Shown here: positions 48,790 through 50,102 of the stretch, in pieces
Layout of the letters: every line of letters starts with the position of its first letter
Numbering within the stretch: the first letter of the stretch is position 1
From: Schmidtea nova
Lineage: Eukaryota
Direction: 5' to 3'
Length of the DNA: 64,000 bases
NCBI GenBank assembly: GCA_044892505.1
Contig: CM097882.1
Coordinates: 357,864,001 to 357,928,000 of the forward strand
Made by a program: the position numbers and the translations under genes
Notes under the pieces: model-generated
The model's input: the letters and a program-made list of their open reading frames with translations, nothing else
Database searches by the model: none
What the model was told of the DNA's origin: nothing

Positions 48790-50102
48790 ATATTAGAGCT
48801 AATAGGAATTGTGGGGCTCTGTATTTCTGTACCCCGTTCTGTATTTCTCTTAATCGGATAAAGGATAAAATACAAAATAAACCTTAATAGAATATTTATT
48901 TTTAAGTAACATTACTTGTTCTTTTTAGTATCCATGAGAAAAATTTTTTGTAGCGCTATAACAGCTGCAGGTTGCAAATCTATATCTCAATATATTTTCT
49001 TAAAGTGCTTTATTTTCTTCTACTTCGAAATGCTGCAAGTGCTTTTTTCTTTCTCTAATTCTAAGTTCTGCTTTGAAATGCTTCAAGTGCTTTTTTTCCT
49101 CTAATTTTAAATTCTGCTGTTTTTTCTGGTTATTTAAACAACTCTCTTGTTTTTTATATATAAGCATATGTTTTTTTAATATATATATATATATATATGA
49201 CGGAGGCACTACAGGAATGATTCTGACACATAGCAGCGCTTTTATTTTGTCGTAGTCGATTGAATTGTTGGTTAATTAAATTGTCGATTATTTATTAATA
49301 CTTTGAAATTTATTAAATTTTGAAATTTATTAATTTTTTTATTATTATTATTAATTAATTAATTTTAATTATTAATTTATTATTTTTTTAAATTTATTAT
49401 ATTTTTATTTTTATTAATATTTTTGTCGATTATTAATATTTTTAATTAAATTGTCGATTATTTATTAATACTTTGAAATTTATTAATTTTTTTTTATTAT
49501 TATTAATTAATTATTATTATTAATTAATTTTAATTAATAATTAATTTTTATTTTTATTAATTAATTAAATAAATTTTTAATTATTAATTAATTTTAATTA
49601 TTAATTTATTATTTTTTAAAATTTATTATATTTTTATTTTATTAATATTTTTGTCGATTATTAATATTTTTAATAATAAATATTATGACAATTTAATTAA
49701 CCAACAATTCAATTGACTACAACAGCAGCGCTTTTATTTAACATAAAACAGGATTAACACGAAACATGTTTAGTTTTGATGTCGCAATGCTAGTATATTA
49801 GAGGTAATAGGAATTGTGTGCCACTGTATTTCTGTACCCCGTTCTGTGATTGTCTTAATAGGATAAAAGATAAAATACAAAATAGACCTTAATAGAATAT
49901 TTATTTTTAAGTAACATTGCTTGTTCTTTTTAGTATCCGTGAGAAAACTTCTCAGTTTTTGTAGGGCTATAACAGTTGCAGGTTGCAAATCTATATCTGA
50001 ATACATTTTCTTAAAGTGTTTTATTTTAAATGCTTCAAGTGATTTTTTTCTTTAATTTTAAATTCTGATGGTTTTATCTGGTTATTTAAACAACTCTTTT
50101 TT
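48790..50102. repeat. Imperfect direct duplication (about 48790-49158 and 49797-50102)
   Basis: Shared blocks TATTAGAG.TAATAGGAATTGTG, CTGTACCCCGTTCTG and GCAGGTTGCAAATCTATATCT. Roughly 85-90% identical by eye. Confidence 0.9.
49248..49724. mobile_element. Foldback/MITE-like insertion with 38-bp TIRs and a 15-bp flanking direct repeat
   Basis: TIRs at 49248-49285 and 49687-49724 (2 mismatches). GCAGCGCTTTTATTT at 49233-49247 and 49725-49739. AT-rich interior with an internal tandem duplication. Confidence 0.85.

Follow-up and report, generated by a model that had tools for sequence, protein, structure and literature searches.

What kind of enzyme leaves a 15-bp target-site duplication (TSD) around a short element with terminal inverted repeats (TIRs) in what appears to be an animal genome? 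This question is raised by a locus in a 64-kb stretch of DNA (hereafter, the window), where an initial annotation had described a TIR element at 49233..49739 bounded by a perfect 15-bp TSD. Our analysis bears out that description, and no structure of comparable quality arose in 20 shuffled versions of the window. We propose, with a probability of about 0.55, that the locus carries a young non-autonomous TIR element (a MITE) that was moved in trans, with a 15-bp stagger, by an integrase-class DDE transposase of the IS481/IS481EU type encoded elsewhere in the genome. At present this is a good lead and not yet a discovery. The features on which the argument is based are as follows.

49233..49247, plus strand: left TSD copy, identical at 15 of 15 positions to 49725-49739 and flush with the left TIR
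49248..49724, no strand assigned: non-autonomous TIR element (MITE), 477 bp, 7.8% GC, with TGT...ACA ends
49248..49285, plus strand: left TIR, 38 bp, beginning TGTCG, with one GTCGATT at 49255; complementary to the right arm at 36 of 38 positions
49272..49441, plus strand: internal unit 1, 170 nt, sharing its first 14 nt with the inner part of the left TIR, with GTCGATT at 49283 and 49425; identified by Tandem Repeats Finder (TRF; period 170) and by global alignment to unit 2
49442..49671, plus strand: internal unit 2, 230 nt, repeating unit 1 with ~60 nt added by A/T slippage, with GTCGATT at 49453 and 49653; identified by global alignment
49687..49724, minus strand: right TIR, 38 bp, reading TGTTG on the minus strand; identified by complementarity to the left arm
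49725..49739, plus strand: right TSD copy, matching 49233-49247 at 15 of 15 positions and flush with the right TIR

The flanking 15-mer and the structure of the element

With the ends fixed at TGT...ACA, we compared the two flanks at every duplication length from 2 to 30 bp, and a single length, 15, gave a perfect flush match (the next best was 9 of 20). This result supports the earlier proposal of a MITE-like element inserted through a wide staggered cut. The exact direct repeat is in fact 16 nt long (49232-49247 and 49724-49739), since the terminal A of the right TIR (49724) is the same as the flanking base at 49232, and the 17-bp, one-mismatch register that had also been suggested adds one mismatched terminal base and carries no information. 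The probability that the left 15-mer recurs by chance at the right flank ranges from 1.1e-9 (base frequencies) to 2.0e-9 (third-order Markov model). A 15-mer repeat taken alone is not rare here, because the window has three isolated exact repeats that reach 15 nt or longer, and two of them enclose no TIRs. What sets this one apart is the combination with inverted ends: the window has 4118 pairs of exact direct repeats 10-40 nt long, and no other has 18 of 20 inverted matches at its inside ends (the next best has 15), and in 20 block shuffles of the window the best value was 14-16, with 18 reached in none. Collectively, these data support the view that the 15-mer behaves as a TSD made by a wide staggered cut. 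An exact 15-nt direct repeat was also observed at 56048-56062 and 532 nt downstream; it encloses no inverted repeats and lies within a tandem duplication (55743-56777).

The TIR arms are separated by 401 nt, and their complementarity ends at TGT/ACA on the outside and at position 38 on the inside. Both mismatches are located in the right arm, at positions 4 and 11, and the initial annotation was correct in describing them as CpG transitions, but decay through methylation is not shown. The CpG observed/expected ratio of the window is 1.025, and across nine repeat pairs CpG transitions (20 of 163 sites) were compared with transitions at other C/G sites (89 of 1159), yielding a Fisher p of 0.066. 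CpG decay in this genome is thus weak at most and does not establish methylation as the source of the TIR mismatches, and on the same figures we dropped it as an insertion clock. A reading of the position-4 mismatch that does not involve methylation is possible, because the two ends of a single IS481EU family, compared by eye in the published material, often differ at positions 4-6 (PMC10045372).

The AT-rich interior (15 G+C among 401 nt) contains the two tandem sub-repeats noted earlier, which TRF and alignment resolve into the 170-nt unit and its 230-nt expanded copy. Their first 45 nt are identical and their last ~90 nt nearly so, with the middle expanded by A/T slippage, which shows that the non-coding interior grew by internal tandem duplication. 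The perfect TSD together with the near-perfect internal duplication suggests that the insertion is young. The heptamer GTCGATT occurs five times in the element, always in one orientation, and 14 times in the whole window; the tandem duplication explains two of the five copies, leaving about three independent occurrences. GTCGATT, present in both TIR and interior, may be the site that the transposase binds. The predicted strand fold of the element (z -8.55) merely restates the TIR, and Rfam returned no match at E<=1 between 47000 and 52500. The interior also seemed to resemble three AT-rich tracts found elsewhere, but none of the scores was significant: of 300 Markov simulations, 22, 117, and 133 equalled or exceeded the score of the respective tract, and the resemblance was dropped.

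Copies, relatives, and genomic surroundings

The initial annotation had called for other copies of the element, an empty allele, and a long partner encoding a transposase, and a search of the 64-kb window found none of the three. The element is present there as one copy: no second TIR was detected at up to 12 mismatches in 38 nt or up to 3 in 20 nt. A model of the empty site matched only itself and microsatellite sequence. An apparent TGT...ACA pair (55142/61494) with a 4-bp flank match was rejected since its two ends fall within inverted copies of a 390-bp repeat, and the homology of these copies continues outward. That repeat (~390 bp, interspersed) has three copies in the window, at 55026-55415, 61219-61610, and 37670-38030, which are 74-89% identical.

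To look for the enzyme, five plasmid-borne IS481 proteins were used as tblastn queries and as an HMM profile against 1290 six-frame segments of the window. The profile and the queries picked up no IS481-type transposase in the window, the only protein matched being a distant Gypsy integrase. One tblastn match (56162-56272, E 0.026) was rejected as a transposase remnant because the profile gave it no support. In addition, a tblastn search of the window with its own Gypsy integrase found no Ginger-like ORF. The five plasmid IS481 loci also served as a reference for the ends; clean ends were obtained in one, with a TSD of 6 bp, and so no long-TSD comparison was gained.

Prokaryotic relatives were sought with an 18-nt pattern of the element's ends, which produced 37 matches in GTDB genomes, against a chance expectation of 15-169 depending on GC content (35 at 55% GC). 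All 37 resemble chance and were rejected as relatives, as none extends: the next 20 nt agree at no more than 10 positions, and the best inverted partner ends differ at 3-5 of 14 positions. Likewise, the element found no relative among plasmids (6 records, best E 2) or phages (4 records, best E 0.5).

The window itself has 29% GC and nine N gaps, and the element lies in a gap-free stretch. A Pfam scan that covered 28 of the 62 listed ORFs gave matches to Gypsy reverse transcriptase, RNase H, and integrase, an organellar-viral PolB, a hAT dimerisation domain, a Mos1 helix-turn-helix, DDE_1 of the pogo/Tigger type, and a TRAF/meprin MATH domain; remnants of Gypsy, pogo/Tigger, mariner, and hAT elements are thus present. 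One feature served as our marker of an animal host.

29724-30119, minus strand: TRAF-type coiled-coil and MATH exon, with Pfam and PDB matches

Against the PDB, this MATH exon matched chains of TRAF1-6 (28 sequences), the closest being TRAF5, TRAF4, TRAF2, and TRAF3, with a best E of 2.6e-17, and its one match in a protein database carries the Pfam accessions of the TRAF zinc finger and MATH. Judged from sequence content, the host would appear to be a metazoan or a close relative, and the window does not look parabasalid-like.

Several other features surround the locus. The element occupies the unique spacer between two copies of a ~360-bp host repeat, one at 48789-49148 and the other at 49794-50100, which share 85% identity over 288 columns; the second copy runs into an N gap at 50103. 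On the minus strand at 50237-52430 lies a pogo/Tigger-type element, whose DDE_1 gene is broken by a stop and which ends in CAGT beside a TA run; its end has an 8-nt word in common with TIR positions 7-14, probably by chance. A Gypsy element at 12678-19443 (1132-bp LTRs, 99.2% identical) is inserted in a PolB-type element. We considered this insertion as an internal TSD control and dropped it, as it shows no clean TG...CA boundary pair and its junction is ragged, with a 4-7-nt duplication. Decayed copies with matches to organellar/viral-type PolB and endonuclease VII, presumably Polinton-like, are found at 10691-12680 together with 19444-20396, at 31614-34760, and at ~23757-24721. The plus-strand region 41060-44322 consists of large exons from a host gene that is highly divergent, with a 47-nt GT-AG intron directly upstream of the ORF at 41184. 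This gene has 2 matches among 1.84 billion proteins, no significant match in the PDB, and only a weak, below-cut-off match in Pfam; it may resemble the TFIIIC subunit Tfc4/GTF3C3. Finally, there is a 272-bp tandem array at 45407-46731 (4.8 copies, 96% matches), and two minus-strand ORFs at 2245-3744 (207 and 264 aa), which have no Pfam match and which we assume to be a decayed hAT-related transposase.

Comparison with integrase-class transposons

The initial annotation had assumed that the TSDs of eukaryotic cut-and-paste superfamilies do not exceed 11 bp and that longer ones belong to non-LTR elements. This assumption is wrong, as the IS481EU/Banshee superfamily combines short TIRs and TGT...ACA ends with TSDs of ~15 bp (PMC10045372). 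According to its description (Kojima and Bao 2023, PMC10045372), IS481EU TIRs are mostly <50 bp, non-autonomous families exist, the termini are TGT...ACA (H. meleagridis) or TNT..AYA (T. vaginalis), and the TSDs measure ~4, 15, or 25 bp, at times within one family. By our own count of Table S1 of that paper, TSDs are determined in 21 of 30 families, 10 of which list 15 bp and 11 of which list 15 or 16 bp.

The element is like the non-autonomous members of this superfamily in most of these respects. Both of its ends start with TGT, its imperfect TIR is 38 bp long, its TSD is 15 bp at the one insertion available, and its non-coding interior is AT-rich and contains internal repeats. There is also a weak likeness in the terminal 6-10 nt. 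More specifically, the two ends start TGTTGT and TGTCGT, as do 9 of the 45 ends visible for 23 T. vaginalis and H. meleagridis families (8 and 1, respectively; counted by eye, PMC10045372), and the left end of IS481EU-4_HisMel agrees by eye with the element's right end at 9 of 10 positions, weak evidence with a chance probability of ~0.05 given TGT and ~0.12 given TGTTG. Several differences stand against these likenesses. At 477 bp the element is shorter than all 8 non-autonomous families (698-2136 bp; PMC10045372), it is known from a single copy, and the window holds no transposase. Moreover, its host is apparently metazoan, whereas IS481EU is described from parabasalids only, the authors' 2022 NCBI BLAST search having returned parabasalid matches (PMC10045372); this is a matter of distribution and not a defining mechanism. 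Other papers naming IS481EU use or cite, in the parts available, the parabasalid set (PMC13343696, PMC12859917, bioRxiv 2024.09.03.611062). Our literature search, whose scope left aside Repbase, Dfam, ISfinder, and subscription journals, found no report of IS481EU or of a TIR element with a 15-bp TSD in an animal. We therefore treat the element as a candidate IS481EU member, with membership unproven on the basis of one copy and a window that lacks the transposase.

The element shares its TGT...ACA ends and a TSD class of ~15-17 bp with prokaryotic IS481 elements, of which ISMac4 and ISA0963-1 are 15-bp members, and with the IS1202 subgroup that makes long TSDs. In the IS1202 family, one subgroup makes TSDs of 16-28 bp, and elements with TGT...ACA ends contain the inner TIR a second time in their interior, a copy that is described as an extra binding site (PMC10132070); the element also repeats its inner TIR inside. 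Unlike these prokaryotic elements, it has no transposase gene, resides in a gap-free eukaryotic stretch, and has an end sequence without a relative among the 37 GTDB matches, the plasmids, and the phages.

Two further groups can be set aside. IS3EU/GingerRoot elements are likewise integrase-class DDE transposons found in animals, and the published tree does not split IS3EU from IS481EU (PMC10045372). They have mostly TA...TA ends and TSDs of 6 bp, up to 8 (PMC6839031, PMC10045372), whereas the element ends in TG...CA and its flanks agree at one of six positions at that length, and membership was rejected on both grounds. Casposons are TIR elements whose papers mention a 15-bp TSD or target site, but they are large and prokaryotic and are moved by a Cas1 homologue (PMC5137440, PMC6977970), and nothing at this locus indicates them.

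DDE enzymes bind the ends of an element, free a 3'-OH at the terminal CA, and join it to the target at positions that are staggered between its two strands, after which host gap repair yields the TSD. The discussion in PMC10045372 also covers these steps. Applied to this locus, a transposase of the RNase H-fold DDE class, related to retroviral integrase, would act on the element in trans, possibly recognizing GTCGATT in TIR and interior; it would bind the ends, cleave at the terminal CA, and carry out a staggered strand transfer, with repair of the gaps producing the 15-bp TSD. The 15-bp stagger could correspond to a basal step of 4-5 bp plus one helical turn of B-DNA, in which case it would take the middle place in the 4/15/25 ladder that has been reported in IS481EU, IS481, and IS1202. 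A three-step ladder is indeed described in the IS1202 group, and IS481 shows classes of 6 bp and ~15 bp (PMC10045372). As to how the long IS481EU TSDs originate, the authors state that there is no clue yet, and they offer ideas untested in that paper, namely the use of inner or outer subunits, alternative multimers, and target looping (PMC10045372).

Alternative readings and significance

The main rival to the IS481EU reading is a MITE of the Ginger2/TDD (or Ginger1) type, in which the 15-bp duplication would be either a rare aberrant event or the enzyme's own one-turn step up, as in IS481EU. We regard this as a serious if unlikely possibility. Ginger ends follow TGTNR, to which both TGTCG and TGTTG conform, and Ginger hosts include cnidarians, insects, nematodes, molluscs, and the lancelet (PMC2836005). 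Ginger2 transposases are integrase-like, with an H2C2 zinc finger and a DDE domain; IS481EU has a single DDD/E transposase that lacks HHCC. Animal Ginger2 MITEs of 252 bp (PMC2836005) and 531-651 bp (PMC3845634) are on record, so that size and host would fit without any transfer. The TSD and the TIR length tell against this reading. Ginger TSDs are reported as 4-5 bp at RTATAY or CCGG targets (PMC2836005, PMC10045372), or as 6 bp for Ginger2 in PMC6839031, whereas the element's flanks agree flush at 0 of 4, 0 of 5, and 1 of 6 positions. Ginger TIRs are generally longer than 38 bp (PMC2836005, PMC3845634): the reported range is 45-297 bp for Ginger2, a minimum that the element falls just under, and ~40-270 bp for Ginger1 (PMC2836005), which makes this a weak objection. 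In addition, if the duplication were an aberrant Ginger product, nothing would favor a length of 15, which is the modal value among the long TSDs in IS481EU.

A related scenario, which we also hold to be possible but rather doubtful, is that an animal lineage has its own recently active integrase-class DDE family with a normal stagger of 15 bp, outside the parabasalid IS481EU clade. Such a family could stem from an independent transfer of IS481/IS1202 or from a Ginger-derived enzyme whose stagger has risen by one helical turn along the 4/15/25 ladder.

The initial annotation had offered, as the first of its two readings, a MITE of an undescribed transposase family. A lineage of this kind, with a fixed wide stagger and unrelated to IS481EU or Ginger, is in our judgment improbable. 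No transposase found in the window ties the element to any family, and the host is poorly represented in protein databases, as illustrated by the few matches to its divergent gene, which makes novel families plausible. Such a lineage is not needed, though, because the ends, the TIR length, and the TSD length all match a described superfamily, IS481EU, at once (PMC10045372).

It is very improbable that the 15-mer is something other than a transposase-made TSD, whether a stretch belonging to the element itself, a host motif that was there beforehand, or a duplication arising when break repair or a non-LTR endonuclease captured a free TIR element. The lack of an empty allele in the window and the two other isolated 15-nt repeats leave some room for it, as do loosely similar motifs (GC followed by a T run, seen by eye) in the adjoining host repeat near 49003, 49037, and 49085. 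On the other side, the element meets its flanks with base precision at TGT and ACA, neither junction shows a poly(A), filler, or a truncation, and the 15-mer does not occur a third time in the window, even with 2 mismatches allowed. The repair or retro-mediated insertion route suggested earlier thus gains no support.

A Mutator-like element with a standard TSD of 9 or 11 bp and true ends 2-3 bp farther out can hardly be credited: MULEs commonly have AT-rich repetitive interiors and 9-11-bp TSDs, and outward symmetric shifts of the ends formally allow registers of 13, 11, 9, and 7, but no 9-11-bp TSD is flush with matching ends. In the 11-bp register, 2 of 2 terminal pairs are mismatched and 4 bases of the duplication would have to agree by chance (P=0.003); in the 9-bp register, the figures are 2 of 3 pairs and 6 bases (P=0.00037). 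The element would then end in TTT/TGC or TT/GC. Across registers 13, 11, 9, 7, and 5, mismatched terminal pairs are accompanied by 2-10 bases duplicated by chance (P from 0.056 to 1e-6).

Returning to the IS481/IS481EU-type reading, what may be new here is the animal host, since this kind of element has already been described from trichomonad protists. MITE finders that limit the TSD to about 10 bp would miss or misfile such elements, which may thus be under-reported. If the element instead belongs to Ginger and this insertion is a lone oddity, the case would be ordinary. If a separate animal family exists, helical-phase switching of the stagger would be a general property of integrase-class transposases, and an animal system for studying it would be at hand. 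If further copies and the transposase are found, IS481EU-type elements would be extended to an animal; their host range would then span a deep division among eukaryotes, owing to horizontal transfer or to an ancient presence that had been overlooked, and many insertion sites would become available for testing the 4/15/25 helical-turn ladder.
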